NCBI GenBank assembly: GCA_905250025.1
Contig: CAJNOJ010000203.1
Coordinates: 1 to 24,335, forward strand
DNA length: 24,335 nucleotides
Origin: Adineta ricciae
Taxonomy: Eukaryota
Direction of reading: 5' to 3'
The notes beneath the pieces were generated by a model that worked only from the letters and a program-made list of their open reading frames with translations, made no database searches and was not told the origin of the DNA. The position numbers were made by a program, and so were the translations under genes. Shown here piece after piece: positions 556-24,335 of this stretch (positions are counted from its first letter, which is position 1; the number at the start of each line of letters is the position of its first letter).

Positions 556-876
556 TGTTATTACTAAGTTGTTCTGCAATGAAATAATGAAAAATCCCAA
601 ATGACGGTGCTTATATGCGCCTGAGAAGCAAAAAGATGGCCAATCCGATAAATTGTACCAAACTAGATGTTTTCAAATGTTCTCGAAACTTTCACGGTTG
701 AGTTTTCTGAGAAGCTGTAGGTGTTTTTCTAGTTTCGATTAAAGATGGCTCTGTAGTCTAATGAAAAGTAATCATTGGTGCGCATCTCACCAATCGAAAT
801 CATCGAGTTTACAGACAAAATCAGAATGCATGTTTTCCGTTTTTGAAAACAGTACAGCACGCGGAAAGGAGAAAAG
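556..876. promoter_or_regulatory. Short (321-bp) divergent intergenic region between the POLR2B (minus) and NDH-2 (plus) start codons; putative bidirectional promoter with CCAAT boxes, and a polypyrimidine-AG acceptor 17-24 nt upstream of each ATG
   Basis: CCAAT at 640-644 and 790-794 (plus) and ATTGG at 774-778. The acceptor ttcattatttcattgcAG on the minus strand ends about 17 nt upstream of the POLR2B ATG. The acceptor tttttgaaaacAG (about 841-853) lies 24 nt upstream of the NDH-2 ATG (877). Confidence 0.4.
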
Positions 877-3144: not shown

Positions 3145-3288
3145 ATACTCAGTCTTTATCATATATTTTTCCCTAGAGAATGTAGAACTCCTCTTTTATC
3201 TCATAATTTAATCTCATTTTTTATGCTTTATCATATATTTATACACAAACTTTCCTCTGACGAAATGAATTACCTGGTCATTTAAAAA

Positions 3289-3312
3289 AATAAAAAGTCA
3301 ATTTCGTTTTAG
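3289..3312 (+). promoter_or_regulatory. Intercistronic processing region: AATAAA (3289-3294) of NDH-2, followed 17 nt later by the 3' splice acceptor tcaatttcgttttAG (AG 3311-3312) that abuts the LSM1 ATG (3313)
   Basis: Sequence ...tttaaaaaaataaaaagtcaatttcgttttag|ATGgattta. The NDH-2 stop is at 3144 and the LSM1 start at 3313. The polyA signal to acceptor to ATG spacing is typical of trans-spliced operon junctions. Confidence 0.55.
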
Positions 3313-3841
3313 ATGGATTTAAGTATCGTAAACGATGATTATTACCTATCCGGTATGGCTGCTTTAGTTGGTGATATTGATAGTGAGTGATTGTTTCACA
3401 GACTTGCTACATATGGAACATATTTGCTTAGAACAGTTGATGATTATGTTACGTGATGGTCGAACGTTGATTGCTCACCTACGCAGTCTTGATCAGTTTG
3501 GTTGGAAACTTCATGAAGAATTCTCTGCTCTATTGTGAGTTTTATTATGTTTAGGTAATCTTGTGCTTCATCAAGCATTCGAACGTATCTGTGTCGGTCG
3601 ACACTATGCAGATATTCCTCGTGGTTTATTCGTTATCCGTGGCGAGAATGTTCTGTTCATTGGCGAATTAGACTTCTATCAACCTTTACGCGTTCCGTTG
3701 GTGGAAGTAACCATAGAAGAAATACTCAAATTGCAGAAAGAAGACATCGAAAAGAAGGAACAGATCGAAAAAGTTCGACGGAAAGCGATGGTTGAACATG
3801 GCCTAGTCGATGAAGGAAATCCGATTGAAGAGCAATATTAA
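3313..3841 (+). CDS. LSM1: LSM1 (Sm-like protein of the cytoplasmic Lsm1-7 mRNA-decay ring); 3 exons
   Basis: Exons 3313-3382, 3432-3500, 3555-3841 (stop TAA 3839-3841); introns 49 and 54 bp. Protein ...MAALVGDIDKQLMIMLRDGRTLIAHLRSLDQFGNLVLHQAFERICVGRHYADIPRGLFVIRGENVLFIGELD... aligns with human LSM1 (LIEDIDKKHLVLLRDGRTLIGFLRSIDQFANLVLHQTVERIHVGKKYGDIPRGIFVVRGENVVLLGEID). The start may instead be the internal Met (MAAL) at about 3355. Confidence 0.85.
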
Positions 3842-3861
3842 CTTGTTTGAAGCAAACGTCT

Positions 3862-4006
3862 AATAAACTATTGTTATTCTTGTTGTTTTTGCCTTGTGAT
3901 GATTGTAAATGTCATCACTCTCTTTTTTTTCATAGTCAGATTACCCGATGTACTTTTCCGTTCATCTTGTTTATCAATCGCATTTTGATAGAAGAAAATT
4001 TCAGAT
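3862..4006 (+). promoter_or_regulatory. Intercistronic region LSM1-PAN2: AATAAA at 3862-3867; candidate acceptors tctttttttttcatAG (AG 3934-3935) and gaaaatttcAG (AG 4003-4004), the latter 2 nt upstream of the PAN2 ATG (4007)
   Basis: The LSM1 stop is at 3841 and the PAN2 ATG at 4007 (165 bp apart). Two polypyrimidine-AG acceptors lie in the spacer; the second leaves only 'at' before the ATG. Confidence 0.5.
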
Positions 4007-5888
4007 ATGGATGGCTCTGGTGATACCCCATATGCATTGGATTATTCAGAATCCATGGCATTTTTTAATAGTGCATACAATCAAACAAGTGCACAGTCGA
4101 TAACAGCGACGGAATTCGATAGTACTCAAGAGTTACTCTGGGCGGGAAGTAATGAGGTAAGGATTGATGATGTTCTCGGGAAATTATCTTTTGAAGTCCC
4201 ATTAGGGACGTGTGGCATCATTTTATGGTTGTGAACTCCGAAAACATACCGGCTTTCGTGTTTCAACAACTTCCGACATTCGAAGTATATTATCGATTGC
4301 ACAAGGACCACTCATACTCGCTTCCGATTCACTTTCATTGTATACAAGACAAGGTTTAAATATCTTCACTCATAGGTAAATATTTGAGATATACCACTCG
4401 TTGGATTGGTGTGTCTTTTAGAGCTCCTTATCTTGACAATATGCAGTGTATGTTAATACCACAATCTCATAAACAAAAGAAAATCTATGTCGGCGGTTAT
4501 AACGGACAATTATGTGAAATGGATTTTGATAAACGAACGTTGCTTCGTCAGGTAATCATGTGAATTAATACGAAAATTACGCTTACCTTTTGAACGATGT
4601 TTCGTAGGTGACCGTCGATGAGGGTGATTGTATCATATTGAAATATTGTACGCGAAATTTCATTGCAACTGGCTCGACCAACGGTGTCGTGAATCTACGC
4701 GACCCAAATTCACTTCAAGTTATTCAACGTTTTACACCTCATCATGGAAGTTTGTCTGATTTAGATATCAATAATATGTATTTAGTTACGTGTGGTTTTA
4801 CACGAAAGTAAATCTTACACATTGAAAATACCTATGTGTTCTAGAAATCTTCGTGTTTGCTCTAGAATGGATCATATGAATCTCGATCGATTCCTTGTTG
4901 TTTACGATCTACGAAACATGCAACAATTAGCGCCGGTACCGGTTTATATCGATCCATGTTTTCTTCATTATCATACAATGACAAGTACATCGGTTATGGT
5001 TGCCTCTCAAGTAACGATAGTTTCTAGCGAGATTTCATCCAAAAACTCCGCTTTCTAGTATGGACATCATACACAAGTTGATTTAACAGGTGGTTTAACT
5101 CATACCTACTCACCGATCATTAATCTAACAACTAATCCTGCTGGTATTATAACAACATTTAGTGTTTCAACCAGTATGCATTGTACAGCATTTGGCCATT
5201 CAACAGGTAAATGACATATTGAAATTCTCAATAGTTTGGCAAGTTTGATCTTAGGTACCATACATCTATTATATAAAAATGATCCACAGTGTTGTTTTAA
5301 CTATCAATCGGTTGAAACACAATTTGCCAATCCAGTACGTAGTTTTTCATTTCGCATTAGATCTCGATGTGTATTACATTCGTATATATCTCTGTTTCAG
5401 CCAGTTGATCCAAAAGTAGGAGATCTTAACGATCCAATGAGCTCTCTGTCGAGCGTACCTATTCCAATAACATCACATAAACTCTTGTCAGATATGCCTA
5501 AACAATGGACCAAATCGATCGCCAGGTAGGAAAAACAAATCAACAAAGAATGAAGTCAACAGGGGTATCTTGTTTTAGGCCAACACCGAAGATTCCAAAG
5601 GAGTTTCTTGATAATGTTCGTGTGTTTCAAGGTCTTGCTTGTGTTAAAAATCCATCAACACGTCGTGCTAATCAATGGCCCTATCCACCCGATGCAGACA
5701 CGTTGGCACCACGTGAACAAATAAAATTTTTACCTGACGAAGATGAAAATACGAATCCGAACGAGAAAAGTAATCCAGACGGAACAGCAAATGAAACTGA
5801 AGCCAACAATCTTAATTTCGATGCTCTATCACTTGATCAACAACCTCAAGATAAAGCACCAACACCTCCAACAACAGCGAACACATGA
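4007..5888 (+). CDS. PAN2-like protein comprising only the N-terminal WD40 beta-propeller and the PAN3-binding linker; no UCH-like or DEDD exonuclease domains before the stop; 9 exons
   Basis: Exons 4007-4156, 4206-4375, 4422-4551, 4608-4807, 4845-5010, 5059-5206, 5255-5334, 5401-5525, 5579-5888 (stop TGA 5886-5888); introns 37-66 bp. Colinear matches to human PAN2: ELLWAGSNE|GRVASFYGCELRKHTGFRVSTTSDIRS (human EEMLWVGSHGGHATSFFGPALERYSSFQVNGSDDIRQ); KIYVGGYNGQLCEMDFD; FIATGSTNGVVNLRDPNSLQVIQRFTPHHGSLSDLDINNMYLVTCGF (human FFCGHTSGKVSLRDLRTFKVEHEFDAFSGSLSDFDVHGNLLAACGF); LDRFLVVYDLRNMQQLAPVPVYIDPCFLHY (human CDRFLKVYDLRMMRAITPLQVHVDPAFLRF); GLACVKNPSTRRANQWPY (human GYAPNPRTRLRNQIPY). The ORF then runs into a low-complexity acidic tail and stops. 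Only AT-rich non-coding sequence with an AATAAA (5989-5994) follows before CRIPT. Confidence 0.8.
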
Positions 5889-6238
5889 AATGTTATTAGT
5901 GAAACTTTCTTTCCCTTTTATACATACTTTTGTCTTCATTTATTCCATATTTTGTTGTTGGTTATTCTTATTGCGTATACATATATAGAATAAAAAAATA
6001 TTTTCTTTTCGTTTCTCGTATACAGTGCATCTCTGTACGGATCATCAACACATTTTCCAATGTATCAATTGGTGCGAGGTACATACATATGCATGGCAAG
6101 AACAAGCTCCATCTATGCTCAAAAGAGGACGCGAGTTGTTTCTGGCAACTATATATTGGTTGAGTTTTGTACAGAAGAAAAGAGTGAATCTATAATATTG
6201 TCGTCGTTTCATTTCATTTCGTTTACCTAATAACAATC

Positions 6239-6753
6239 ATGGTTTGTGATGCATGTAAGTTTGCCTTCGACTTATTTGTCTGAAATAAAGACGAAATGTT
6301 GATTTAGGTCAAAAGAAAGTTGGTCGTATCGCCACTCAAGATGTTTGGAAAAGTATGTTGAAGAAATGTTATAACTATTAATTATTGATGGTTTTCATAT
6401 TTTAGGTGGTTCACGCAATACCGTCGGTATGATGACTTTCCCCTCAATTCATTCTGCATTCGTTTTCTCGTTTTAATAGAAAGTGGCGGTAAAAAACTGA
6501 ATGAAAACAAATTGCTATCAGGCAAATCTTCTCGGTATATTGGATTTCGAACAATAACTTCATTCTTATCATCTCTTACTCTTATAGGTACAGCCCATAT
6601 ACGACAAAGTTTAACAAGTGTAAACTCTGCAAATCAACAATTCATCAGCCCGGAAGTGCTTATTGCCAAGGTTGTGCGTACAAATTAGGCATATGTGGCA
6701 TGTGTGGAGTGAAAATTTTAGAAACAAAAAATTATCGTCAGTCTGCTGTTTAA
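6239..6753 (+). CDS. CRIPT: CRIPT (cysteine-rich PDZ-binding protein); 5 exons
   Basis: Exons 6239-6254, 6308-6352, 6406-6426, 6480-6534, 6588-6753 (stop TAA 6751-6753); introns 53 bp each. Protein MVCDACQKKVGRIATQDVWKSGSRNTVESGGKKLNENKLLSGKSSRYSPYTTKFNKCKLCKSTIHQPGSAYCQGCAYKLGICGMCGVKILETKNYRQSAV aligns along its length with human CRIPT (MVCEKCEKKLG...CRICKSSVHQPGSHYCQGCAYKKGICAMCGKKVLDTKNYKQTSV). The C-terminal -QSAV is a PDZ ligand like human -QTSV. Confidence 0.85.
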
Positions 6754-6793
6754 ATCGATCCCTTTTGCGTTATGATTGTAATTACATACGAGT

Positions 6794-6829
6794 AATAAAG
6801 ATCTCCTCTAATTTGTTTTTCAGATAAAT
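6794..6829 (+). promoter_or_regulatory. Intercistronic region CRIPT-HINT: AATAAA at 6794-6799, acceptor atttgtttttcAG (AG 6822-6823) 6 nt upstream of the HINT ATG (6830)
   Basis: The CRIPT stop is at 6753 and the HINT ATG at 6830 (76 bp apart). Sequence gagtaataaagatctcctctaatttgtttttcag|ataaatATGtcg. Confidence 0.55.
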
Positions 6830-7267
<438 letters not shown>

Positions 7268-7433
7268 TAGTTTTGTGGTGGAGATGCTCTTTTTTCAAAA
7301 AGACAGTTTAGTTTAGTGGTGCAGGCCTTTCTCGCAAGAATTTAATAAAAGATATTGCAAAAATCATTTTGAAAATCTCGCAATGATTTATTTAATTATA
7401 TGAAAATATGAGGAGAAAAAGTTGACAATGATC

Positions 7434-9717
7434 TTATTTCGGCATCCATCCGACTGGATAACCTTTAGCTGCATTTTCAGTTTTCAACCATTTGTATAGC
7501 GGTTTAAAGAAGTCCAGGACTGCATTGGACTCAAGTTTTCTTTCACCGGTTAACTGTTCTAAAATGTCCGACCAGGACTTTGATGAACCCATCGCTAGCA
7601 TTTCTTTGAATCTTCGTCCAACTTCTTTGTTGCCATAAATATTACACATGTACAAATCCTCTGTTTGCCCTTTGATTCGACAAAGTGCTCGATAGAATTG
7701 AAACTGAAGAATATGTGCTATGAAGTATCTTGCGTAGGGCACATTGGATGGAATATGATATTTCGCTCCAGCATCGAAATGAACCGCATCATTTCGATGT
7801 ACAGCTGCCATGATACCGCCATGTTCGACACGTAATGCCCACCACATTGAATTTAATTCATAATTACGATTGATTTGATTACGGAAAAGTGCAAAACGGT
7901 ATTTGTCCATGGCGTAAGCAAACGGAAGAAAGGCAACTTTTTGCAATGCTAGACGTAGAAGATAGTTGATTTTAAATTGTTCATTGACAGCATTTTCATC
8001 GAGAAAGCCCAGCTTGATTAAATTGGCCGGAGAAACTTGAGTTTGCATAGAAAACGACAAAGTTTGATGTGCAATTAATAGCGAAACTTACTTGCAAACA
8101 TGCCGATTGTATCGCCGATAGCTTCGTGAAAACCGGAATTTGCTCCAGAACGGTACACAAATGGTTGTGCTTTGTCGTATGACATATAATATTCAATATG
8201 ACCCATTTCATGATGAATGGTATAAAAGTAATCATCGTCGATTTGTGTACAAATTTTCGTGCGATAGTCATCATGGTAGCCCAGATCAAAGGCCGAGGCA
8301 TGACAAACAACATCACGATCTTTCGGCTTTTTGAACATGCTGCGTGCCCAAAATTTCGGTGTCATAGGATAAAGGTCGATAGATGTGAAGAACTGTTCAG
8401 CTGTTTTATACATTTGATGAATGGAAAACTTTTGATCACGTAACACTTGAGTAATATTTGGAACTGGAGCATTTGGATAAGGTATAAAATCATCAAAACG
8501 CGATTCCCAACTCTGAGCCCACATGTTACCTAAAAAGGGCTTTACAATACAAGATATTCTTAGTAAGAAGAATCTACCGAGCAGATGAGCAGGAATAGGT
8601 CCATTACAACTGAATTTATTTGGATACATCGCACACAGACGACCGCGAACATATGCATGAATTTGCTCATACAACGGTGCGATATCTTTGAGAATTTGAT
8701 CCAATATACCTTCAAATTCGGTAGCATTTCCCATCTCATAGTCCTCGATCCATTCTTCCTAAAAGAAAGAAGATCAGTGTTGCTGTATTCGTATAAGGGA
8801 TTTACCTACAGACAAATCACTATAACCGTTTGCTTTGCAGTTCTTATTCAATAAATCGATGTATGTCAGATAAACAGGTCGAACTTTCATTCCGCATGCA
8901 TCATACCATCCTTCCCATGCCCATGTTAAACGGTCGTAATCTTTCTCTTTTTTCATCAATTCCGTTAAATAAGGCTCAATCGTGTGACACTGTTTAGTAT
9001 TATTCAATTCGCAAACAGTTGTCGTTCCGAAGATCGATTCTAACTGTGAGCTCAACTTCGAGGCTACTTCAACTTCGTTATCGTCGTAACTTATTGTACC
9101 TCTTGCACATCGATTCATAACACGTTTCAGGTCTTCGTTTGTCGAATTTTTCAATTGTGCATTGAACTTCTTTGCAATCGGTAGCGTCAGTCGTGCAAAC
9201 GGAGATACCAGCAGGTTCTGATTACTCATTAGTTTCGCATTTTCAGATGTAATGTTCGTTTCATAATTCCATTCAAGTAAACTACTAACCTAAGGCAAAC
9301 TTCGATATATCAACATTCAATTCTTAATCTTACTTGAGAGTAACGTTGTGAAATTCGAGTGTGCCATTCTAACCATCGTGCTGCAGTCGCTTCGTCAGCA
9401 TAGCTTTTAATTTGTGGCATCTTTTTGATCTCATCGCTGTTCAACTGGTTCCATAAGTTAATGTCGACGTGATCGTTCGGATCGACTTGATCTCGAAACT
9501 TTTCTAATGTGTCCAGATCATCGATGTTAGGCTTTTCCCCGTATACCTTCCATAAGATTTCTTCCGTAAACTCAACGCCGTACTCTTCATGAAGAAAAAC
9601 AACAAATGCTTTTAATTCACGTTGAGAAAACTGTGTCCGTTTCTTTAGCGAAGAAGCGAAATGAATCGCACTGATCAACAAAAGAACACAAATTGTATTC
9701 TTCATTTGCCGCTGCAT
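7434..9717 (-). CDS. Angiotensin-converting-enzyme-like M2 zinc peptidyl-dipeptidase; single catalytic domain, secreted/soluble; 4 exons
   Basis: Exons (minus) 9717-9334, 9289-8810, 8758-8092, 8035-7434 (stop TAA at 7436-7434); introns 44, 51 and 56 bp. N-terminal signal peptide MQRQMKNTICVLLLISAIHFASS. ACE-family blocks: WNYETNITSEN, LTWAWEGWYDACG, PAHLLGNMWAQSWE, HASAFDLGYHDDYRTKICT, the zinc motif TIHHEMGHIEYY (HEXXH), GANSGFHEAIGD (second zinc ligand), FLPFAYAMDKYRFALF, GAKYHIPSNVPYARYFIAHILQFQF. The sequence ends ...GYPVGWMPK with no C-terminal TM anchor. Confidence 0.88.
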
Positions 9718-10342
9718 CTACGAACTAAAAAAAGCATACAATCATCTCGTTTTGCTATCTGAATGTATGTTTTCCGCCTTCACTCAGTAAAAGAGTAGGC
9801 AACAAAATAACGAACGCGACCAATATGCTGTTGATTTGTTACACCGAAAGGTAATCAAGCGTGATACTCTTTCTTTTTCTTACCTGAAAATCGAATATTT
9901 TTTCATTATGTTTCAATCGTCCTGAGCGTAGCGTTTATGTGACAGAAAAATAACACAATCAGTTCTTTGCTACGTTAACGCGATTACTGATATCTACATT
10001 GAAAGGCACATGTTAGCATGAAAGAAAAGATTCCCTGTGATATTCTTTCATACATGGACAGAACGAAAATATGATTCACATTTTTTATTTCTATGTGCTT
10101 ATTACGATTGTGCGCTGGATTTATTTCTTTTTTTTTAAATACACACGATGACATGTAATGAAAAGAAAAATATTGTCTATTGGAAGAATCGACTTGGTCA
10201 TAGATATTCATTGGATTATGGCTAAAAATAAACAAAATAATGAAATTCCAATTTACGGAGAATTAAAAGAACAGTGAGAAAATTGTGAAAGGGAAACATG
10301 CGAAGGTGGAGTGTGCAGACGAGACTTACTCAGCAAAATGGA

Positions 10343-11929
10343 TTACGCTAGAGGAGACTATTTTAGGAACGAGATTTCGTTTGGTATGTGATGACTAACC
10401 TGCTTTTCTATTTGCATTTGCTGTATGGTTTTGGGTGCTGCTGAAGGGAAAAATGATTCTTTGGTAGTTTTAGCTGTTGCCCCGGGATTGAAGCCTCCTA
10501 AAATATCAAGGCCAGCAAATGGACTTGTGACCGGCGGTGGAGGGGTCGGTGAGATAGGCGAAGGAGTCATCGAACTCAATTGGGATTGTTGAGGTTGAAG
10601 AAGTATTGATGTAGGTGTGATTGGACGTTGTTGCTGCGTTTGTGGTTGAAGATAATTCGGCATCGTGTTTATTGGATTTGTTTGAATAGGTGTAGCAAAG
10701 GAATTGCCGTATAGATTAGGTAATTGTGTTTGCGGTGTTGTGATGGGAGTAGAAAATGCATCCAGTAATGAGTTTGTAGTAGTAGTTGTTGTTGTTGATG
10801 GCGCCGATGTTGTTGTAAAAGAAAGATCGCCAAAAACGCTGTCCAAAGACTAAAGATAAACACATGCATAAAAATACTTTTGTCAAAGATCTCTTTGCTT
10901 TCACATTGAATATGTGATAAGATAAGAAATATTGCGAGGAAAAGAATTTTTCGAAGTCTTGAATGGTTTTATTCTAGTTTTCTAAATCCTACCTCTTCAG
11001 CTTTTGGTGCCGGATTCTGTGCAACAGCTGGTGTAGAGTCGTTTGTACCCCATAAGTCTAGACCACTGCTAGCAGCAGCAACAACAACAACAGGTTGAGT
11101 AGGTGGCGTCGTTGGGCTCGGAGTTGTATCCCAGATTGAATTATCATCCAGAAGTGATCCCTTCAAGCATATGGGCATTAGAAAAATTGAACTAGTCGGA
11201 CAAGGATAATTACCGCTGATGGTGAAATGATCGAACCTGCATTAGCTTGTGGTGGCAATACTGGCGATGTAGCACCATTTGGTGTTGTTTCCTAAACAAA
11301 AATTAATTAAGATGATAAATACGGTAGGTAATCCACTCACTGCAGGTTTGCTTTCGCTTTCTTTTAGTTTGACGTCATTCGTATATTTCTCAAAAGCTAA
11401 CTCGAAAAGTTCTTTCAACGCCAGTACTGTTGCTGCGGCAGCTCGTTCCGTTTTAATAGCCCAAAATTGATGACGATCGTCCGATGTGTTATAAATATAT
11501 CCGAATGCTCGAGTGTCACGTGGATCAATTACGACAAACGATATACGTTCAATTTCATGGCAAGCAATTTGTGCCTAAAAAATGTACATTAGCACGAGAA
11601 AAAGATCTGATTTCTTTTCTTTTTCAACAACGTACTTTAGTAGTCTCATCGGTGATTTTTACTGTCGTCATCGTTAAGTTCAATTGAATTCGTTGTTTGT
11701 GTTCACCACGGGCACGCACAACAGCTTTCAATTTAAACATCGAATCAAGACAAATTTTTTCATCTCGATCCACAGTTAAATCTTCCATTCCGATTAATTT
11801 GGCTCGAAATGGAAGTCCATCGCCTTCGAACTTCTTCGTGTTAGCCGCAGCTGTTGTCGCGGCTTTCTTCACTTCATCGTCTTTCGGCGTTGGACTTGCT
11901 GGCGGAGTAGTTACTGCCGGTTCAGACAT
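10343..11929 (-). CDS. Disabled (DAB1/DAB2-like) PTB-domain endocytic/signalling adaptor; at least 5 exons with a tentative short terminal exon
   Basis: Exons (minus) 11929-11636, 11574-11341, 11291-11214, 11160-10993, 10849-10400, plus a tentative terminal micro-exon 10357-10343 (…IEKQ|SPLA*). PTB domain: KKFEGDGLPFRAKLIGMEDLTVDRDEKICLDSMFKLKAVVRARGEHKQRIQLNLTMTTVKITDETTK|AQIACHEIERISFVVIDPRDTRAFGYIYNTSDDRHQFWAIKTERAAAATVLALKELFELAFE. This matches Dab1 ([36 protein letters not shown]...[85 protein letters not shown]). The C-terminal half is Ser/Thr/Pro/Gln-rich low complexity with DAFS and FAGLDILGG motifs. The 3' end is uncertain. Confidence 0.75.
10763..10800 (-). repeat. Coding ACA/ACT (Thr) triplet repeat inside the DAB C-terminal exon (poly-Thr TTTTTTT)
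   Basis: Minus-strand sequence acaacaacaacaactactact(aca) encodes STTTTTTTN within ...FTTTSAPSTTTTTTTNSLLDAFS. It is a short, imperfect trinucleotide microsatellite. Confidence 0.6.
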
Positions 11930-12428
11930 CTTCGTATAACTTGTGATAGATGCTAAATGAATCAAACGAAAGACAAATGCAACACCGCTGCAGCCGTGTA
12001 GATAGATGATAAGAAGATATTCTTTGATATACTCAGGTCGTTTTCTTATTCGTTTGAATACCTTAAGTTAAATATCAGCTAGAAGTGTTGGCCCGTAGGT
12101 GTAAAATGCAGCAAGAAAAAAAAAGATAACTCAATACAACAGATAAGCAGATAAACTCTCGCGTCTTTTGGTTCTCATACAAGGAAGCTTTTGTAATTCG
12201 TTGAATACCGTAGTTATCACGAAATTTTCTTACTTACAAAGCGTATGTGTAGAAAAGCGCATCCGTTCGTCCTCCACTTCGATCATCAATTGTATTGCTC
12301 ATGTAGTATCAATGATCGCTACTGATTAGATAAAACTTCTTATTTCGCGTTTCGAATTTCTTTATTCGAACAATGAATCAATAACGACATACAATACAAA
12401 GAGAAAGGAAGGAGGAACTAGGGAGTTG

Positions 12429-13583
12429 TTATAGTTGTGGCTGTTTCCACCGGTATCCGATTGTAAAACTACCTGTCGTACGTATTGATGATGCTGTCGG
12501 CTGACGGATAAGCTGAAATTGTTCATAGTTCAATGAATTAGTCGGATTTATCGACGTATCATTATCATAAACATTAATCGTCTCAAAATAATGCGACATT
12601 TTAATTTGACATTTAATTAGAAATCGTCTTAATTCTCGTCGAAATTTTGAGCCGAAAAAAATGTAAATATAAAAGTTCATTGCAAATGAAATGTGATAAA
12701 TCAAATGAAAATAATGTTCTAATTGTTTAAAGAATTTCGTTTGAAATCTTTCATCATTAGACAGTAAACGCCATGTATGAATACACGCATATGGTGCGCA
12801 AACAATTAGATACGATGTCGAAACAGTTAACAACAACTTGGTCATTGAACGCGACGCTTTGCATCGTGTTAAAACATGAAAGTTCTTCAATTGAGAGTTG
12901 TTCGTTTGAAATAACAGTTGATGCTGGCTATTCCTCATTCGTCGTAGTGATATCAAGATGATTGCATTCATGGTTATAATCATCATATACGGAATGAGAA
13001 AAACGATCAAACAGTCGATAATATCCATGATCGCATTTAGTTTGCGAAATTTTTCGTAGGAATAACAATATCCACCGACAATACCGACAATGAATGGAAT
13101 GTACGAATAGATCAAACAGGCAATAAGAACGATACATAAAGCCAAACAACGTGATCGATACCATGAGAGAACATAAGAAACACGAATAGGCTGTGTAACA
13201 GCAAATAAACGTTGAGCCGTGAATGCAACTGTATAATACGCATTGATAAAATTACAAACGTACGTTAGGTATAAACTTGATTGACAAATGATTGGATGAT
13301 GTAAAATATTGATATAATTTGTCAACCATAAACAAAACAATACCGATAAATACATCGTATCTGATATAGCCATGTAGAATAGAAATGGATATACGGACAT
13401 CGTTGTTCCAACGGTTGTTCGTAAGGCTCGTTGACCAAAAATGATAATAACAAAACCATTGCCGATACATCCGATAATGACTAATAACAGCAAATAGATG
13501 TGTGTAAAGAAGAAATTGACAGGATTGAATTCAGTTGATAGTAGAGTGGTGTAATTAGAAGGCATTGATGTCAGATTCGCCAT
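12429..13583 (-). CDS. Intronless class-A (rhodopsin-like) orphan G-protein-coupled receptor, 384 aa
   Basis: Single uninterrupted 1155-nt ORF. It has seven hydrophobic segments, N-glycosylation sites in the N-terminus (NLT, NYT), and a GNGFVIIIF TM1 motif. The DRY position is occupied by AQRL, there is a TM6 CAPY motif, and TM7 carries NFYIYIFF (NPxxY-like) followed by a basic helix-8 (GSKFRRELRRF). No closer family assignment is possible from sequence alone. Confidence 0.75.
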   Translation of the reverse strand: MANLTSMPSNYTTLLSTEFNPVNFFFTHIYLLLLVIIGCIGNGFVIIIFGQRALRTTVGTTMSVYPFLFYMAISDTMYLSVLFCLWLTNYINILHHPIICQSSLYLTYVCNFINAYYTVAFTAQRLFAVTQPIRVSYVLSWYRSRCLALCIVLIACLIYSYIPFIVGIVGGYCYSYEKFRKLNAIMDIIDCLIVFLIPYMMIITMNAIILISLRRMRNSQHQLLFQTNNSQLKNFHVLTRCKASRSMTKLLLTVSTSYLIVCAPYACIHTWRLLSNDERFQTKFFKQLEHYFHLIYHISFAMNFYIYIFFGSKFRRELRRFLIKCQIKMSHYFETINVYDNDTSINPTNSLNYEQFQLIRQPTASSIRTTGSFTIGYRWKQPQL

Positions 13584-14877
13584 CGGAATACACTTTGATG
13601 AACTAAAAAAGTCGAGATAATCGTTGATAACTACGAGAGTCAGTTACGAAATGTTTGCAACTACGCAAATTGCTCTGCAAGGAGGTGAAACATGCTCTTG
13701 TGAATAATAATAAGGGGGAGAAAAATAATGCTTTGCACTCGTTATAACCTGGGATATCTTTGATAACCCCTTTGACATTGAAGCGGTTAATTGATGGAGA
13801 AAAAAATCTAACAGAATCAAAGGTAATCTAGATTATGTGATTTTCTAGCTGATAAAACTGTCTTTACTACAATGTTATTTCTCTTCAATCTACGTACTCA
13901 GAAAAAAAGGATTCGTGCTCGATATGCAAGAGAATAGGTAACAAACTTTTGACTCGACCGATAATTAACGGAATGACGAGATAAGTACTTGTTGTCATGC
14001 ATCATCAATTATGTTAGAAGAAAAACATCTGCGTTTTGAACTGTTGGGACAGAGTAGAGCTATTTTAGTGAGCACTATCGAGCGGAATGCTTTTTCTAAA
14101 TAAGATACACCGGAGACACACACGAGAGAGCAATCAAAACGAGATAAAAGAAAACAGAAAAACAAAACTGTCATTCTCCCGACGCACATCGGTTTTTTTC
14201 TCTGGAAATCTTGACCAGACTTAAGAATTCTGCCTCTGTGCATTATCAAAAGCACCTTTAAAAAAATGTCATTCATTTCCTCAGAGGACAAAATTGAGAT
14301 TTTATGTCATTATATTTTATAAAATAAGGACAACGCTTCTCAATGAAGCAACATAAAATAGAAACAGTTTTTCGAACCGTATTAGATATTTATAAGACTA
14401 ACTAATAAGAATTCATTCATTTTGCATGTCTTCAATCAGCACACGCGATCTGGGTACGCTGAACAATCAATCTTATGTTTCATTTCTCTCTCGAGGAGAA
14501 TATAATTCCCGCCTACATTGTATACATGTCGCAATAATGATAATAACCGAGAAATTTCGTAAGTAGCAAGTTCAACAGTATGGCGGAGTACACCTTCTTT
14601 TAATTAAAAAAGCTTATTAACGTCGAACTTATCTCGCATTTGTCTATCCTTCACGAGTACAGGTTACTGGATGCTCGTAACTTTTCCTTAGATAGATTTA
14701 TTATGAATATCTTCAGGATATTTCCATTTTCGTTATGTTGTATGCCACAGACAGAACATAATCAATAAATCTACATGATTTTATTAGATGTGATAACTAA
14801 ACAATTACAAAGCAATCCCAGAAATGACCTACAATCATCAAATCTTCTAAAATTTATGTCAAATTTGAATTAAGTTT

Positions 14878-17102
14878 TCAGTTCGTAACTTTCTTTGAAA
14901 AGTTCGCATCAATTTTTAAAGTTATTTTATGCCAGGAATTATTCATCACACCGCGAATATTCCATATACCTAATGGAGAGTCAGGTTGCGAATTCGAATG
15001 GACGTCCATTGCGCGACAAACGACGTCGAAAGGCTCCGAAGGGAGATCTTTCAATGGAATGTGAGTAGACCAAAGAGTCCATGCCCATGCACGCATATAC
15101 GGTTGAGCAAGTTGTTCCAAATCAGCTTGCAACCAAGTTTTCCTGTAGAAAGAAAATAAGAACTTTATCTTGACACATATATGATTAAAAATTCTTTTCA
15201 AAAACAAGTTCTTGTCTCGTGAACTTCCTATACAATAAGTATAAATAACAGCTACTTATATATTCAAAGGCGCAAATCTCGATAATATCAAACACGAATA
15301 GATACTGTTCTTCATTAGAACCAGACACTCGGTATTATTTGGTTAATGCGCCATATAGAGTAGAAAAGAAAACGGACGTTATTCTCCGCTTCTGCTGCCC
15401 ACGTTGTGTTCGCTTGTTTCTTTTACATTTATGTCTCGAGGTCATTCTAAACTGGTGATTAGCTTACCCATGATCGAGACTGATCTGCACGTTTTGAACT
15501 TGCCTTCCGCCTCCACCGACTGCGTAACCTTTGATTGTTAATGTTTGATTTTTAGCATCCTCACCAGTCGGTTTAACCGAAAGAATTTTCACTTTATTCC
15601 CATCTTCAGTCGATGCAGGATAACAAATCGCTGATTGAACATTTGATTCTTGTATTGCTGGTACACGATCATAATCGGCTTGTTGTGGCTGTTTGATGGA
15701 CTGTGGCAGAACTTTATAATCAGCCTTTTGCCAATGGCTATCCGATTCCTCGTTGGAAACAATAATTCGATTGACCCACTTGACACTTCGCGCGCCGACT
15801 GTGCCCGGGACAATAATACGTAGAGGATATCCATGATCACTAGTTAGAGTTTCATCATTCATTTCATATGCAATGAGAACATCATCACTGAGTGCTTTCT
15901 CCATTGGAATCGATGCACCATAACATCTAAAAAGTAAAATAAACATACGTTGCATTTTTCTGGGTCAATCAAGCTTTTTTAACCTTTGTGATGTATCACA
16001 ATCAAGTCCCACAAACTGCACATGTTTGCCCTCTTTGAGTAAGCCAAACGATTCTAAGACGTCGCGTAATTTCACACCTGTCCACCGAGCATTGCCAATA
16101 GCGCCAACATACCATGGTGTGCCTTGTACAGAACCTTGTGCATCGTTATTCATAGCTGCACGACGATTTCCTGCACATTGTAAAGCAGATGTAACTGTAT
16201 GCGATTGGTATTTATCTTTTAAATCATCGTAGGAAAGAGTATGTGCTGAAGTTCCATCGCCAATCTCCAGTTTGAACTCGTTAATGTTGACGAAGGGTAC
16301 GTGCATATGATTTCGAACATAGAATTTTTCGATTGGTGTCAGAAAAGATGAAACGAGAACTGTAGGCTTTGTTTCGGCATTGAATGGCTTTTCCGAGCGA
16401 ATGAAAAAGTTTTCAGTCGCATTGATTCGCTCAGGATCGTATTGAAATAAATCAACGACTTCCTCTTGAGCTTTCGCATTTGCTTCGCGTTCACCTACAA
16501 AATTCGACGCTGAAAACAGAAACAGATATTCCTGCTCGTACGATACCTGGTGGAAGATTTCCTATGCGATATTGTTCTAAGGTCTCGTACACATGATCAA
16601 TTTGATGGATAGTAAAGATTTTCCAACATGCTTCTAAAGCTTTACCGGCAGTTTTTAAAATTTGTTTTCCTCCGGGATGATTTTCAACGAATGCGCTTAT
16701 ATCATAGACTCCATCTTTATAAGCGAGCCAATAGCCTTAAGAAAAATTCCATTGAAATTTTTTCCGAGAAGATGAATTTTCAAATTTCTATTTGTTTCTG
16801 GTTTTTAGAGAAATCAATACCATTTTCTTTCGTTGTATGCTTTGCTACTTCAGTCATGCTATACGTCGGTAAAGATGATTTATGTTCACCAATAACGAAC
16901 GGAGTTTTTGTTGTGTCAGCATAAACTACTGGTCTGTATTTGTTGAAAAGATAACCTTTAAAAGAAATGGGACAGTATTACATTTCATGGTCATGTGTAC
17001 AGATAAAATGATTCTACCTGCAGCTAAACTACTAGTGAAACCAATAGTAAGAATAGATGCTTTGGATTTTTGGCGAAAAATAGTTGTTATTCGTGATCGC
17101 AT
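14878..17102 (-). CDS. SUOX: Sulfite oxidase (mitochondrial; cytochrome b5 + Moco + dimerisation domains); 6 exons
   Basis: Exons (minus) 17102-17018, 16955-16821, 16735-16547, 16509-15984, 15926-15468, 15142-14878 (stop TGA 14880-14878). Introns are 62, 85, 37, 57 and 323 bp. Presequence MRSRITTIFRQKSKASILTIGF. Cyt b5 heme motif HTTKENGYWLAYKDGVYDISAFVENHPGG. Moco domain FNAETKPTVLVSSFLTPIEKFYVRNHMHVP, LQCAGNRR, GTPWYVGAIGNARWTGVKLRDVL, YGASIPMEKALSDDVLIAYEMNDETLTSDHGYPLRIIVPGTVGARSVKWVNRI, SHWQKADYK. Dimerisation domain TIKGYAVGGGGRQVQNVQISLDHGKTW...RAWAWTLW...NIRGVMNNSWH. It is colinear with human SUOX. Confidence 0.9.
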
Positions 17103-17300
17103 TTTGTTGAGGTCAATTAGAATCTAAATTTGAGTCATTTATCATTCTTAACACCATCTTTGACATTTTACACGATTGATCAATTGTTTCAACCAATAAG
17201 ACGCTGTCCTATTTGTCTTCCGCAGTCAATCGTACGATTTGTTCTTTTACCGTCCACATTTGACTCATTAATACTAATGAAAATTTTCTGAAATTCAACC

Positions 17301-18520
17301 ATGAGTTTAACAGGAGTTGTGTCGGAAACACCCAATGTTTTACTGTCGCCCGAAAGACTTCTTATGGAAGTACCACAAGGTCTACATAACTCCATGGCAA
17401 TTGCATCGTTAATTATTTGGTACGTTTCATCTGCTGCAACACTATTCTCAAATAAATATATCCTAAGTACTTACAATGGCGATGCATTTTCACTAGGTAT
17501 TCTACGCAAATTTCGTTCATTTGGATCAATTTTATTTGTTTCGTTCAATTCGTTTAGGAATGAATCAACTTCTTCTATCCGTGATAACAGGCTATGTTCA
17601 AATGCAAATCATGAATAGAATCTCGACGCAAATCCATAAGAATCCATCGACTGCCAAGGCAGTCTTTCAAGATATGTTTTTTATCGGTGCATTTCGTTGT
17701 GTTACAGTTATCCTCGGCTTAATCGCACTTAAACACATTGCTGTTTCATTTGTGGCAACTATCAAATCGTCTTCGCCTTTGTTCACTGTGATTATTAGTC
17801 GGATAATTTTAGGAGAAAAAACGGGCATTTGGACAAAATTCTCAATGGTGCCAATCACAGTTGGTCTTGGCCTGTGTAGTTCATTTGAATTGAGTTTCAA
17901 TATATTTGGCTTTCTGTGCGCCTTGGGAACAAATATTTTCGAATGGTAAAACGAAAAGAGAGATTTCCGATAAGGAAAAAATATTTCTTCTCCTTTTAGC
18001 TTACAAAACGTCTACTCAAAAGTGCTCATAAGTGGCGAACGCTATCGTTATACAGCTGTTGAATTACAGTTTTGGGCAAGTTTGGTCGCATCTGTTTTTC
18101 AGATACCTCTACTGTTTTACAATGTTCCTGTTTTGTCAGCGATACGTTCGACTTCTCTGACACTTTTTCTTTTATACATCTTTAATGGGATTTCATATCA
18201 TATTCAATCAGTTGCTGCTTATTCTGTCATGGCCTATATCTCGCCCATAACACATAGGTAACGTGTTAAGGTCTAGAGTTTGGTGTTGATTCATATCATT
18301 CCCTTTTAGCGTGGCTAATACGGTTAAGCGAGCATTGTTAATTTGGTTATCAGTATTGATTTTTCACAATCCAGTTACATTTCTTAGCGGTTTTGGTACA
18401 TTAACAGTTATCTTTGGGGTGATATTGTACAACGAAGCACGAGACATCGAGAAGAAGGCGGGAAATTCGTCTACTTCAGCTAATAATAACGGTCCAGTCA
18501 TAGCATGGAGAGATATTTGA
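17301..18520 (+). CDS. SLC35E-like nucleotide-sugar/triose-phosphate transporter family membrane protein; 4 exons
   Basis: Exons 17301-17496, 17558-17945, 18000-18257, 18310-18520 (stop TGA 18518-18520); introns 52-61 bp. The protein is multi-TM. Matches to human SLC35E1: [19 protein letters not shown] (LLWYALSAGGNVVNKVILS); [20 protein letters not shown]...[30 protein letters not shown] (VKATMPIWVVLLSRIIMKEK...[25 protein letters not shown]); [10 protein letters not shown]; [37 protein letters not shown]...GVILYN (LSYSVANATKRIMVITVSLIMLRNPVT...GVFLYN). Confidence 0.8.
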
Positions 18521-19362: not shown

Positions 19363-22300
19363 ATGGCCGATTCAAAAGTTAGCGGTGGTAAGACCAGTCA
19401 TCGGATGTATACAATACGAAACTCTAAATGTGTTCTTTGCTACTTTAGTCTATCGAATTCCTCCTTTCTACTATTTACATGTACTTGATCAAAATACCAA
19501 CGTCACTCGACTTGAAGTTGGTCCAAAAACCTTCGTCAAGCAAGATCATGAGAAGGTCATCCTCGGACCTGAACGCATGTTAATCATTCCGTATGTTCGC
19601 ATTCAATGTGATCGAAAGTAGTCATCTTATTTCTTTCGTATTTTCCTCTTTAGACCACGTCACTATTGTGTAGTGGAGAATCCAGCCATTCGAGACAAAG
19701 ATGGCAAAGTTGTTACAGATTCGAATGGTCAAGTGAAATTGCTTCACTCAGATGTTGATATTCGTTTCGCCCAAGAGCCATTTCCCCTCTATCCAGGAGA
19801 AGTTCTCAAACAAGCAGTCACACCATTAAAAGTCATTGAGCCTAACTGTGCATTACGTCTTCGTGCCGTCTTGGATTTTGTTGATGAAAACGATAAACAA
19901 ATTCGAGCTGGAGACGAATTTCTCTTTCAAGGACCTGGTATGCTTTGAAAAAAAAACCATCTCGTGTCAGTCATTCTTTCCCTTTCTTTTAGGTACCTAT
20001 CTTCCTCGTAAGGAGGTTAGTGTTGAAGAACAAATCAAAGCAGTCATCTTGAAACCAGGCGAAGCCGTTCGTTTACGTGCTAAAAAAGAAATGACAGATC
20101 GCGATGGTATTGAACGCGAAACAGGCGAAGAATGGCTGAACCGAACAGTCGGATCCTACTTACCCTTAGCCTATGAAGAAGTTGTCTCAACAGTCAAAGC
20201 CTATGTGCTTACTGATAAAGTGTGTATTTACCGCTACGATCTAATTCAAAATACACGACGAATGTTTGGGTTTGTTTTGTAGAAAGCACTTCATGTCCGT
20301 GCACTGCGCACATTTACGGATGCATTCAAACACAAACGTCTTCATGGTGAAGAATGGTTAATCTATGCCAGCGATGCCGAAACCTACATTCCCGACGTAT
20401 ATGAAGAGGTAGATTGGACAGCACTGTTTTGGAAAATAATATGAATTTGAATTTGATAGGTTGTTGGCGTTGTATCTGTAACCGTGTTGAACTCTCGTCA
20501 ATATTGCGTCATTCTTGATCCAGTTGGTTCTGACGGTAAACCACAGCTTGGAAAGAAAAAACTCGTTAAAGTATGATGCGCTCCAACTTGTATAAAGCAG
20601 AAAATATATCTAAATATCTTTTATAGGGCGAAAAATCCTTCTTCCTTCAGCCCGGTGAAAAATTAGCTAAAGGCATTCAAGATGTCTACGTTCTTGAAGA
20701 AGATGAAGGTCTTATCCTACGTTGCACAGAATCATTCAAAGAAGATGGGGTAAGTTTGTGACCATCGATCAATACATAATAAACTGTTTTGACGTTTTAT
20801 AGAAAGTCGTTAGAAATCCTGGTGATCGCTGGATGGTTCGCGGGCCTAAAGATTATATTCCAGCTGTTGAAGCTGAAGTTGTTCTTCGTCGTAAAGCAAC
20901 CCCATTGGATGTCAATGAAGGAATTTACGTTCGTGATGTTAAAACCGGTAAAATTCGATCGGTCATCGGCAGTACATATTTATTGACTGAAAATGAAGAA
21001 CTTTGGGAAAAAGATTTACCAGCACAAGTTGAGCAATTGATCACTTTAGATCCACGATACTTTGAAGATAAAGCAGGACTTCCTACTACTATTCCACCAC
21101 GTGATAAATCTAAAGTTGTTGTCTACCGTGTGCCACACAATGCATGTGTACAAATCTACGATTATAAATCAAAGAAGGCGCGTATTGTTTTTGGTCCTGA
21201 ACTCGTTATGCTTGGTCCCGATGAGCAATTCACCGTTTTGAATCTTTCCGGTGAAAAACCCAAAGTACCCAACAAAATCCGTGCTATCTGTCTTCTCTTG
21301 GGCCCGGAGTTTTCCAGTGATATTGTTACCATTGAATCAAGTGACCATGCTCGTCTATCTCTTCGACTTTCTTACAACTGGCACTTCGAAGTACGAAGAA
21401 TAGATTTCAGCAAACTAGATTTCATTGACGGTTTTGTTTACTTGTAGGTTACTGATCGTAATGACCCGAAAGAAGTTGCTAAACTCTTTTCAGTCCCTGA
21501 CTTCATCGGAGATTTCTGCAAAGCTGTTGCTGCCAAGATCCGTGGTGCCGTTGCTGCTATCCCTTTCGATGATTTTCATAAGAACTCAGCTAAAATCATT
21601 CGTACATCAGTATTTGGCCTTGATGAAAATAAACGAGTCAACAACCGATTACTATTTCCACAAAATAACTTGGTTTTAACTTCAATTGATATTCAAAGTG
21701 TCGAACCTGTTGATCAACGAACACGTGATGCACTTCAGAAGAGTGTCCAATTGGCTATCGAAGTATGTTGCGAAAGACAAGATTGAATTGTAGATAGAAA
21801 ATAATGATGATGATGATATCATTTAGATCACAACCAATTCACAAGAGGCTCAAGCTAAACATATGGCCTCTCGAACTGAACAAGAAGCCAAAGGTCATTT
21901 GGAACGACAGAAGATTACCGATGAAGCTGAAGGTAAGATTGAACCTGGCGAAAAATAGGACCGGGAAAACATCTATTGTTTATTTTTTTCAGCTGAAAAG
22001 GCTCGACGAAAACTATTGCAACTTCAAGCACTATCAGCTGCTGTTGAATCAACCGGTCAATCGCGTGCTGAAGCACAATCACGAGCTGAAGCTGCTAAAA
22101 TCGAGGGTGAAGCAGCAGTTGAACAAGGTAATATGATAACATTCTTTTGTTGAATAATTTTTAAACAACATAATTTCATTTTTTTTAGCCACACTTCGTG
22201 CCCAAGCAGCTAAGATCGAAGCTGACATCGAACTTTACCGATTAACTCAAGCTCGTGAATTGGAATTGAGCTATTCGAAATTAGTTTCTGATCTTGAAAT

Positions 22301-22588
22301 TGAAAAAGCCAAACGATTAGCTGATATCGAAACTGAAGAATTCAAACAACATGTTTCTGCTATTGGACCTAAGACCATACAAGCAATCGCAACAAGCGGA
22401 CCTGATAATCAAGTACGACTTTGCTTTTTGGAGTTCAAATTGATCTTTTTTATGAAAACCTTTGTTTTTAGGTCAAACTTCTTCAAGCACTTGGTATCAA
22501 ATCAACTTTGATCACTGATGGACGTAGTCCAATCAATCTTTTCAACACAGCTGTTGATTTAGTTGGAACACCAGCTGTGCAACAATAA
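19363..22588 (+). CDS. MVP: Major vault protein (MVP), complete copy A; 13 exons
   Basis: Exons 19363-19387, 19449-19590, 19654-19937, 19993-20219, 20283-20408, 20460-20570, 20627-20749, 20803-21390, 21448-21762, 21827-21932, 21993-22127, 22189-22412, 22472-22588 (stop TAA 22586-22588); introns 51-64 bp, all GT-AG. It is colinear with human MVP along the whole length: [29 protein letters not shown] ([28 protein letters not shown]); [14 protein letters not shown]; GEEWL repeats; [24 protein letters not shown]; [52 protein letters not shown]; [34 protein letters not shown]; coiled-coil cap [40 protein letters not shown]; and the C-terminus [27 protein letters not shown]. Confidence 0.92.
21688..21846 (+). 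repeat. 159-bp tract ~99% identical (2 mismatches) to the inverted tract at 24077-24235 in MVP copy B; spans the end of one exon, an entire 64-bp intron (21763-21826) and the start of the next exon
   Basis: Direct comparison of 21688-21846 with the reverse complement of 24077-24235 gives gatattcaaagtgtcgaacctgttgatcaacgaacacgtgatgcacttcagaagagtgtYcaattggctatcgaag GTATGTTGCGAAAGAMAAGATTGAATTGTAGATAGAAAATAATGATGATGATGATATCATTTAG atcacaaccaattcacaaga. The flanking coding DNA of the two copies is only about 70-75% identical, and that divergence is mostly synonymous. Confidence 0.85.
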
Positions 22589-23401
22589 TCAGCACTCATG
22601 CAAACAACTAAAACCCATATGAGTGCCGTCAGATTTTTCAAAAACAAAATCCAACACTTCATTGTGACAGTTCTTACCTTTTTGTGTAACCTATAGAAAA
22701 TTTTGTTTTCAAGCATCATTTAAGAAATAAATACTATACATATACATACGTTAAAGTTCATATTTTTACTCAAATGTTCAGAACGACAATAGAAGATCGA
22801 TCTGAAGTCGGTTGATTATTCGTGAGATTTGGTGACTGATGTGTAAAGAAAAAATATTTATATCCGAAGGCTTATATGTTGATAAAACGCAAAAGGTAGT
22901 GACGTCAAGTGTTTGCGTTTATTGTCCCTATATCCCTGCCGCGCATAGCAAGGAACAACAGTATTGGGTTATGTCTTTCTATAGAAAAAAAAAACTACGA
23001 AAACCAATTTCTTTGTCGAAGTTTAGTGAATTCACATTTCTCACTATGATTCATTCTCAACTTCGAACCCTCGACAAATGACCTCATTTTCACCTTTATA
23101 AAGTCCACGATGTGAGAATAGAGGGATGAGGTGTGCGAGCTCCTCCTACTTCTTCTTCTTCGTAGCACCTGGGAAATTTTCTCTATTCTGTATCTGCAAA
23201 AATGATTGAACAATGTTGGTCAAGCCATCCTCATTTTTAGCGACAATCGAGAAGCAATACGTTGGCAAAAGAACGTGTTTAGTTTTGTTGTCAGATTTAT
23301 TATTCATACATAAACTTGAAAGGAGAACATAATCAAGCTAAAAGTTTTATTATAAAATAACATGAAGACAAGTGCACGAAGTTCTCAATATCGCATCGGG
23401 T

Positions 23402-24335
23402 TTATTCGTTTTCGACGACTTGATATCCGTTTGAAGTGTTTCGGGATGCTCCAGCATTTCGGTTGGTGTTTGTGGTTAAACCACCAAGAAGGCCTTGGCC
23501 AAATCCCATAAGATTGATCGGTGTATGACCATCGGTGACAAGCATTGATTGAAGACCGAGTGCTTGAAGAAGTTTGACTTGAGTATCTGGACCAGAGGTA
23601 GCGATGGCTTGAATGGTGGACGATCCAATGGATTCGACTTGTAATTTGAATTTTTCTGTTTCAATGTGTGACATTTCGGCTTTTTTACTAATTTCTAATT
23701 CATTTTGATCATGAAGAAATTTGATCTCAGCTTCACGAGCTAATTTCAAGCGTGATAATTCAGCCTCGGCTTCGATACGAGTAGCTTCAGCTTTGAGACG
23801 AGCTATTCAAAAGAAGAAATTAGCAATGTGAAGAGGTCGAAAAAACTTTCTCTACCTTGTTCGACGGCAGCTTCTCCTTCGATTTTGGCAGATTCTGCTC
23901 GACTTTGAGCTTCAGCTTTAGCTTGGCCAGTTGATTCGACAGCAGCTGATTGTGCTTGTAATTCGAGAAGTTGTTTACGAACTTCCTCAGCTTCAGCTTC
24001 ATCTTTAATACGTTGTCGTTCTAATAAACCTTTGGCTTCTTGTTCACGCCGTGAAGCCTCATGTTTAGCGGCAGCTTCTTGTGAATTGGTTGTGATCTAA
24101 ATGATATCATCATCATCATTATTTTCTATCTACAATTCAATCTTTTCTTTCGCAACATACTTCGATAGCCAATTGAACACTCTTCTGAAGTGCATCACGT
24201 GTTCGTTGATCAACAGGTTCGACACTTTGAATATCGATGGATGTGATAACGAGATTATTTTGAGGGAAAACAAATTGATCGCGAACGCGTTTATCAGCAT
24301 CAAGACCGAAAACTGCGGCACGGATGATTTCTGCT
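23402..24335 (-). CDS. MVP: Major vault protein paralog (copy B), C-terminal three exons; gene continues beyond the window end; convergent with copy A
   Basis: Exons (minus) 24335(partial)-24161, 24096-23856, 23802-23402 (stop TAA 23404-23402); introns 64 and 53 bp. Protein ...[58 protein letters not shown]|[80 protein letters not shown]|[108 protein letters not shown]... It is about 70% identical to copy A in protein sequence. It lacks two introns that copy A has, at the DEAEAE|K site and before VKLLQ. Its C-terminal tail differs. Confidence 0.88.
24077..24235 (-). repeat. Partner of the 21688-21846 tract (inverted orientation) inside MVP copy B, including its 64-bp intron 24160-24097
   Basis: See the 21688-21846 entry. 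The intron length (64 bp) and sequence are conserved except for one C/A difference. Confidence 0.85.

Follow-up and report, generated by a model that had tools for sequence, protein, structure and literature searches.

Probable interlocus gene conversion, intron included, between convergent and anciently duplicated major vault protein genes of the bdelloid rotifer Adineta ricciae

The stretch of DNA analysed here, called the window throughout, comprises 24,335 nucleotides of the bdelloid rotifer Adineta ricciae (GenBank assembly GCA_905250025.1, contig CAJNOJ010000203.1, positions 1 to 24,335 of the forward strand) and ends in two genes for the major vault protein (MVP) that share a tract of 159 bp in nearly identical form. 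MVP-A is a complete gene on the plus strand, with a coding sequence (CDS) at 19363-22588, 13 exons, 12 GT-AG introns of 51-64 nt and an uninterrupted open reading frame of 840 amino acids (aa). MVP-B lies on the minus strand; its stop codon ends at 23402 and the gene leaves the window at 24335, the visible part (23402-24335) comprising the C-terminal 271 codons plus stop and two introns. The genes are convergent, tail-to-tail, and the distance between their stop codons is 814 nt, the spacer at 22589-23401 holding the two 3' untranslated regions according to the gene models. Exons were first mapped by tblastn with a human MVP sequence, and GT-AG models with open reading frames were built from the window sequence; the exon models were later confirmed by database homologues, Pfam and solved MVP structures. 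The Pfam families Vault, Vault_2/3/4 and MVP_shoulder are all found over their cut-offs in MVP-A, and the end of MVP_shoulder, likewise over its cut-off, in the MVP-B fragment. The C-terminal 251 aa of MVP-A align with solved MVP chains of human and rat (E = 4.5e-88), and the marks of the family, namely vault repeats, shoulder domain and cap-helix region, are present. The closest proteins to MVP-A, all of them bdelloid MVPs, are a JGI protein (90% identity) and those of Rotaria socialis (88%), Adineta vaga (88%, partial) and Didymodactylos carnosus (79-80%), and MVP-B is orthologous to B-type genes of Rotaria and Adineta that code for 888-893 aa. A look-up of the exact MVP-A protein in the protein collection gave no entry, and metagenome contigs scanned for 34 nt of the intron shared by both genes gave no match.

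In their comparable C-terminal part the two genes are 71.6% identical in protein (169/236) and 71.3% in CDS; outside the shared tract both values are 67%. Two introns of MVP-A (21933-21992 and 22413-22471, both on the plus strand) are without a counterpart in MVP-B and, by the gene models and a cross-species intron map, occur in no B-type gene. Besides the intron within the tract, one intron position is common to both genes, and its intron served as a control: in A it lies at 22128-22188 on the plus strand, after ...AAVEQ, and in the gene model of B at 23855-23803 on the minus strand. A preliminary description of this DNA had already pictured a tail-to-tail pair about 0.8 kb apart, about 70% identical in protein and 70-75% in coding DNA, with two introns of A missing from B, and each of these statements was reproduced.

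The same description had reported a near-identical tract with a complete 64-bp intron, and this also holds. An ungapped base-by-base comparison of 21688-21846 (plus strand, MVP-A) with the reverse complement of 24077-24235 (minus strand, MVP-B) yields 157 identical positions out of 159, and the B copy is likewise delimited by an exact-match search. One mismatch, at 21747 (C/T), is synonymous (GTC/GTT), and the other, at 21778 (C/A), is intronic. A spacing of 2,230 nt separates the two inverted copies. The tract contains exact inverted runs of 59, 30 and 68 nt, the next longest run between both genes being 20 nt, and it is the sole A/B segment of the window in which 50-nt windows reach 94% identity; on either side identity falls abruptly to about 70-80%. 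A repeat finder reports a wider inverted similarity of 350 nt at 84%, and a large palindrome with near-identical arms was not found, the arms being 61-75% identical outside the 159-bp tract. The tract codes for D623-E654, the stretch in which the shoulder domain ends and the cap-helix begins (ITTNSQE being the part after the intron), and this is the most conserved peptide of MVP, with only two residues differing from human MVP. The phase-0 intron of 64 nt follows ...QLAIE at 21763-21826 (plus strand) in A and lies at 24097-24160 (minus strand) in B, and 63 of its 64 nucleotides are the same in both genes. Within it, 21800-21822 holds a short (ATG)4 run and, directly after it, the palindrome ATGATATCAT; the ATGATATCAT region is the only predicted hairpin of this intron, with a stability no better than that of shuffled sequence.

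The identity extends to sites that the protein leaves free. Degenerate codons that specify the same amino acid in A and B are identical in 30 of 32 cases within the tract and in 76 of 137 outside (Fisher p = 2.6e-5), and the longest run of identical codons has a permutation p of 0.004. Nei-Gojobori estimates of synonymous divergence (Ks) between A and B amount to 0.10 for the tract codons, whereas the left flank is saturated, the next 150 nt show 0.73 and the rest 1.36; a Ks near zero within the tract against high values elsewhere was what the preliminary description had anticipated. The introns behave in the same way. Under a gap-tolerant global alignment the tract intron of A is 98% identical to that of B and the control intron 62%, against a shuffled background with a mean of 63% and a maximum of 75%, and the control intron shows this background-level A/B similarity in every within-species pair compared. 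Unrelated bdelloid introns laid ungapped have a median identity of 33%, at which 63 matches in 64 positions have a binomial probability of about 3e-24.

The gene pair itself is old. Convergent A(+)/B(-) pairs of MVP genes were found in R. socialis (three assemblies), on the A. vaga chromosome CP075497.1, in Rotaria sp. Silwood2 (two assemblies), at two loci of Didymodactylos carnosus, and at a divergent locus of Rotaria sp. Silwood1 (L005/L006) which is taken to be an ohnologous pair. From the presence of this second, divergent pair in Silwood1 and of two pairs in Didymodactylos, the inverted MVP duplication seems to predate the bdelloid genome duplication. Intron positions are conserved, five in A-type and two in B-type genes of the compared region. 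In a neighbour-joining (NJ) tree of the proteins A, B and the MVP of the monogonont Brachionus form a near polytomy. A has 67% of its residues in common with B and 66-67% with the MVPs of molluscs, brachiopods, hemichordates and cnidarians. This topology, with A as distant from B as from non-rotifer MVPs, indicates that the A/B duplication is older than the bdelloid radiation, and the pair is present in all bdelloids sampled, in keeping with the earlier designation of the two genes as old duplicates. B appears as the conservative copy (72-74% identity to the same mollusc, brachiopod, hemichordate and cnidarian proteins), with a longer C-terminal tail and about 890 aa in other species, and A as the faster-evolving copy.

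Comparison of these pairs shows that the tract has a history different from that of its surroundings. The intron at the tract position is 98% identical between A and B in the window, 100% in A. vaga, 93% in Silwood2 (repeated in the second assembly, L012) and 76% in R. socialis, and 66% and 62% in Didymodactylos and at the divergent Silwood1 locus, where the A and B introns are unrelated. Between species this intron is 52-69% identical, which equals background, orthologous A-A and B-B comparisons included; the B intron of A. ricciae is unrelated to the intron of A. vaga. A block of 105 nt that codes for the identical peptide SIDIQ...NSQEA differs between A and B at 4 sites in the window, 2 in Silwood2, 5 in R. 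socialis and 2 in A. vaga. In the pairs without conversion the same block differs at 20 (Didymodactylos) and 22 sites (divergent Silwood1), although the peptide is nearly the same, and constraint on the protein therefore fails to explain the identity of the DNA; the insufficiency of purifying selection, so far argued from the intron of a single pair, is thereby borne out. Sequence identities of the flanks follow the paralog type (A-A 76-90%, B-B 76-93%, A-B 58-75%), and an NJ tree of the flanks separates all A from all B genes with 100% bootstrap support. The NJ tree of the tract groups by species instead, with bootstrap values of 99% for A plus B of the window, 78% for A. vaga and 69% for Silwood2. 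Judged from these sequences, the pattern is one of classical concerted evolution that arose independently in each lineage, each species having an intron sequence of its own. The related-species comparison proposed at the outset thus came out as concerted evolution in A. vaga, in Silwood2 and, in decayed form, in R. socialis. Ks between orthologues of the window species and of the sampled Rotaria and Adineta is 0.73-0.95, which places the conversion event of the window later than these species splits.

That the events were separate can also be argued from differing tract ends and from extra islands of identity in A. vaga and Silwood2. The homogenised stretch of Silwood2 extends about 45 nt further to the left (left-flank Ks 0.29), and its A/B pair (L008) has several further patches, among them 16285-16373 and 16691-16803. 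The second island of A. vaga (L004, 11767-11885 against 15403-15285) is identical at 113 of 119 positions and codes for a 16-aa stretch. Scans of exact A/B matches and of 50-nt windows found no extra islands in the Didymodactylos and divergent Silwood1 pairs. The homologue of the second A. vaga island in the window lies in MVP-A at about 21113-21215, and copy B of the window ends before it. In Silwood2 the A/B flank Ks is 0.62, compared with 1.0-1.9 in the other species, and this lower value suggests that conversion in Silwood2 once reached further. On its right side the tract stops at almost the same point in the window, A. vaga and Silwood2, just before the first fixed paralog-specific codons (A: QAKH, B: AAKH); in the window these codons begin within the edge region at 21847-21859 on the plus strand (A: QAK, B: AAK). 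Such a shared edge would fit either heteroduplex rejection at a mismatch cluster or selection against converting paralog-specific residues. Among seven pairs, the two tract copies lie 2.2-3.4 kb apart in converting and 4.6-6.4 kb apart in non-converting pairs, the Didymodactylos (L007 and L010) and divergent Silwood1 pairs having the larger A-B spacing; a link between spacing and conversion is, with seven pairs, only suggestive.

We consider it very probable that the tract is the product of recent non-allelic (interlocus) gene conversion between the convergent, anciently duplicated MVP genes, as had been proposed for this locus; the Ks values, the control intron and the grouping of the tract by species all support this reading, and the discrete tract with abrupt edges, the identity at neutral sites and the phylogenetic discordance are the features by which interlocus conversion is recognised. 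A break or gap in one copy would have been repaired with its inverted counterpart as template, at a distance of 2.2 kb along the same chromosome, most likely by synthesis-dependent strand annealing without crossover, and about 160 bp of genomic DNA, intron included, would have been copied. A fixed inversion by crossover between the tracts, which would swap the 3' ends, was considered and rejected, as in every gene the two flanks of the tract agree in paralog type. The direction is hinted at by the glutamine codon at 21736-21738 (CAG or CAA): the B-type CAG in A of the window hints at conversion from B to A, and the same codon in Silwood2 and A. vaga at conversion from A to B. The event in the window would be one of many. 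The near-invariant junction of shoulder and cap-helix may keep enough DNA identity for a homology search, every conversion would renew this identity, and the patch would thus behave as a self-sustaining conversion island, from which the flanks, with their fixed paralog-specific residues and saturated silent sites, would have escaped.

Several observations weigh against this interpretation or narrow it. The tract holds only about 21 synonymous sites, hence a wide error on its Ks; the identity of the R. socialis introns, 76%, is barely over the best shuffle at 75%; the direction of transfer depends on the one diagnostic glutamine codon; and copy B of the window was compared up to 24335, where it ends. 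Double-strand-break repair and replication template switching, moreover, are indistinguishable by sequence alone, as the sequence holds nothing that sets the one apart from the other. The latter, in the form of a quasi-palindrome-type correction or of fork stalling and template switching, could have made an identical patch of this kind: the two inverted copies are separated by only 2.2 kb, the tracts are short (about 95-170 bp), and the effect of proximity among the pairs fits either mechanism. Yet the tract edges bear no microhomology scars or added bases, and extensive conversion by homologous recombination is documented in bdelloids (PMC6264785), so we regard template switching as unlikely. 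The tract identity in the window is, furthermore, that of assembled sequence alone, which would allow an artefact of assembly or polishing in which reads of one paralog corrected the other within a short similar region, and the exons of the tract are conserved enough to draw mis-mapped reads. A genuinely different intron of 64 nt, however, would draw no reads of the other copy, two differences persist between the copies of the window, and the same pattern recurs in independent assemblies made with different technologies (A. vaga CP075497.1 and the two of Silwood2); an artefact is very unlikely.

Gene conversion also has to be weighed against explanations that place the cause in the intron or in the transcript. 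Introns can host small nucleolar RNAs, microRNAs or splicing regulators, and this intron interrupts the stretch of the gene that is conserved best, so that an embedded element required in both genes might keep it identical; the preliminary description had named such an element, conserved in related species, as evidence that would speak against conversion. No such conservation was found. The intron is at background similarity between species even among orthologues, in two A/B pairs the introns at this position are unrelated to each other, and the synonymous sites of the flanking exons are homogenised too. Rfam at gathering score gave no match in the whole window, and at E values up to 10 on 21600-21950 it gave only chance-level hits to MicF and snoZ105 (best E-values 5.9 and 7.6). 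Folded on both strands, the tract intron shows no excess of folding over shuffles (z = +0.69 and +0.79), and the A. vaga intron and the control intron also fold no better than shuffles. A conserved RNA embedded in the intron is hence excluded, and a functional element is extremely improbable as a cause. Homogenisation by a reverse transcript of one gene finds some favour in R. socialis, where A and B resemble each other more in the exon part (87/93) than in the intron (76%), and in a precise loss of a neighbouring intron from MVP-A of the window, a classic outcome of recombination with cDNA. The introns of the window, A. vaga and Silwood2 are homogenised together with the exons, however, which a spliced cDNA donor is incapable of; by the same logic as applied elsewhere (PMC6993855) the donor was genomic DNA. 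As a general explanation cDNA-mediated conversion is very unlikely and for the window tract it is refuted, whereas for the intron loss and the exon patch of R. socialis alone it is possible.

The intron loss just mentioned concerns MVP-A at 21858/21859 (between ...SQEAQAK and HMASR...), where a phase-2 intron has been lost precisely. This intron is kept in the A-type genes of R. socialis, Silwood2, A. vaga, Didymodactylos and the divergent Silwood1 locus and is present in no B-type gene examined. Only 12 nt separate the site from the end of the tract on its right side, yet the site has A-type codons to its left and right (CAA GCT ... ATG), which makes a single conversion from B an unlikely cause and points to cDNA-mediated loss or patchy conversion instead of a simple B-to-A tract.

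More tentatively, and with considerable doubt, we can imagine that the patch is a long-lived island that has existed since before the bdelloid families diverged, with its edges set by selection against the conversion of residues specific to one paralog and its persistence favoured by co-assembly of the two proteins: both paralogs could need an identical shoulder/cap-helix junction to co-assemble in one vault shell of 78 subunits. In a more speculative variant, read-through transcription of the convergent pair would yield a hairpin with a perfect stem of 159 bp that might feed a small-RNA regulation of both genes.

The genes upstream of the pair (window 1-18500) look ordinary. They include an NDH2-type NADH dehydrogenase (about 1275-3144, plus strand), an ACE-like peptidase M2 (7434-9229, minus strand), an apparently intronless rhodopsin-type G-protein-coupled receptor (12429-13583, minus strand) that is syntenic with A. 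vaga, a sulfite oxidase (about 14.9-16.7 kb, minus strand) syntenic with R. socialis, and a TPT/EamA sugar-phosphate transporter (about 17.1-18.5 kb, plus strand) syntenic with both R. socialis and A. vaga. The order sulfite oxidase, TPT transporter, MVP-A and MVP-B is shared with R. socialis.

Interlocus conversion of nearby inverted duplicates is known from the inverted hsp70 pair of Drosophila, and related cases are the gamma-globin genes of primates and the genes of Y-chromosome palindromes. As in these systems, short and putatively non-reciprocal tracts copy neutral sites, introns included, between MVP paralogs of the same chromosome, and the sequences of the tract cluster by species, those around it by paralog type. 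Unlike in palindrome-type systems, in which whole arms are homogenised, the MVP arms are very old (67% identity, with saturated silent sites) and exchange persists only in an island of about 160 bp. According to the theory of duplicated-gene divergence by Walsh (1987), conversion reportedly needs local identity, so that regions past a threshold escape and constrained ones stay trapped; the MVP genes would be an empirical case of this, trapped in four pairs and escaped in two or three. The phenomenon is, in kind, already known, both as conversion between nearby inverted paralogs and in its parallel occurrence across lineages. Parallel concerted evolution has been described for duplicated ribosomal protein genes of fungi, in which mostly coding sequence is homogenised, pointing to cDNA donors (PMC6993855), and concerted evolution for the duplicated histones of yeast (PMC4700949). 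The MVP genes resemble both in being ancient duplicates for subunits of a large oligomeric assembly that were converted repeatedly in several lineages; they differ from the ribosomal protein genes in that the intron is converted as well, from a genomic donor, and that a small part of the gene is affected. For bdelloids there are good descriptions of gene conversion among former alleles or collinear pairs (PMC3464624, PMC6264785). The organisms, the patchy tracts of identity and presumably the recombination machinery are the same here, but those copies are a few percent apart, whereas the MVP paralogs predate the bdelloid radiation and lie inverted in cis. A search of the literature on MVP in bdelloids and on interlocus gene conversion in rotifers found no prior description. 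What our comparison supports as an extension is a recurrent, lineage-independent and DNA-templated conversion confined to a small island of homology at the most conserved peptide of MVP.

The locus provides a clean, internally controlled case of an intron carried along by conversion, with the second intron at a shared position as the negative control. It also brings non-allelic conversion between inverted repeats in cis to the bdelloids, where conversion is mainly discussed between former alleles. This segment of MVP will mislead any gene tree or 'allele sharing' analysis into which it is taken. In A. vaga, irradiation and rehydration induce MVP genes (PMC10809525), which makes the locus relevant to the bdelloid stress response. 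In at least three or four lineages the same island of roughly 160 bp was homogenised independently, and in others it has escaped; on this basis the locus could be used to gauge the frequency, the reach and the divergence tolerance of bdelloid recombination. If the island is long-lived, it would be a natural and phylogenetically replicated reporter of how often non-allelic homologous recombination occurs, how long its tracts are and how much divergence it tolerates, in an animal clade with a disputed recombination biology.

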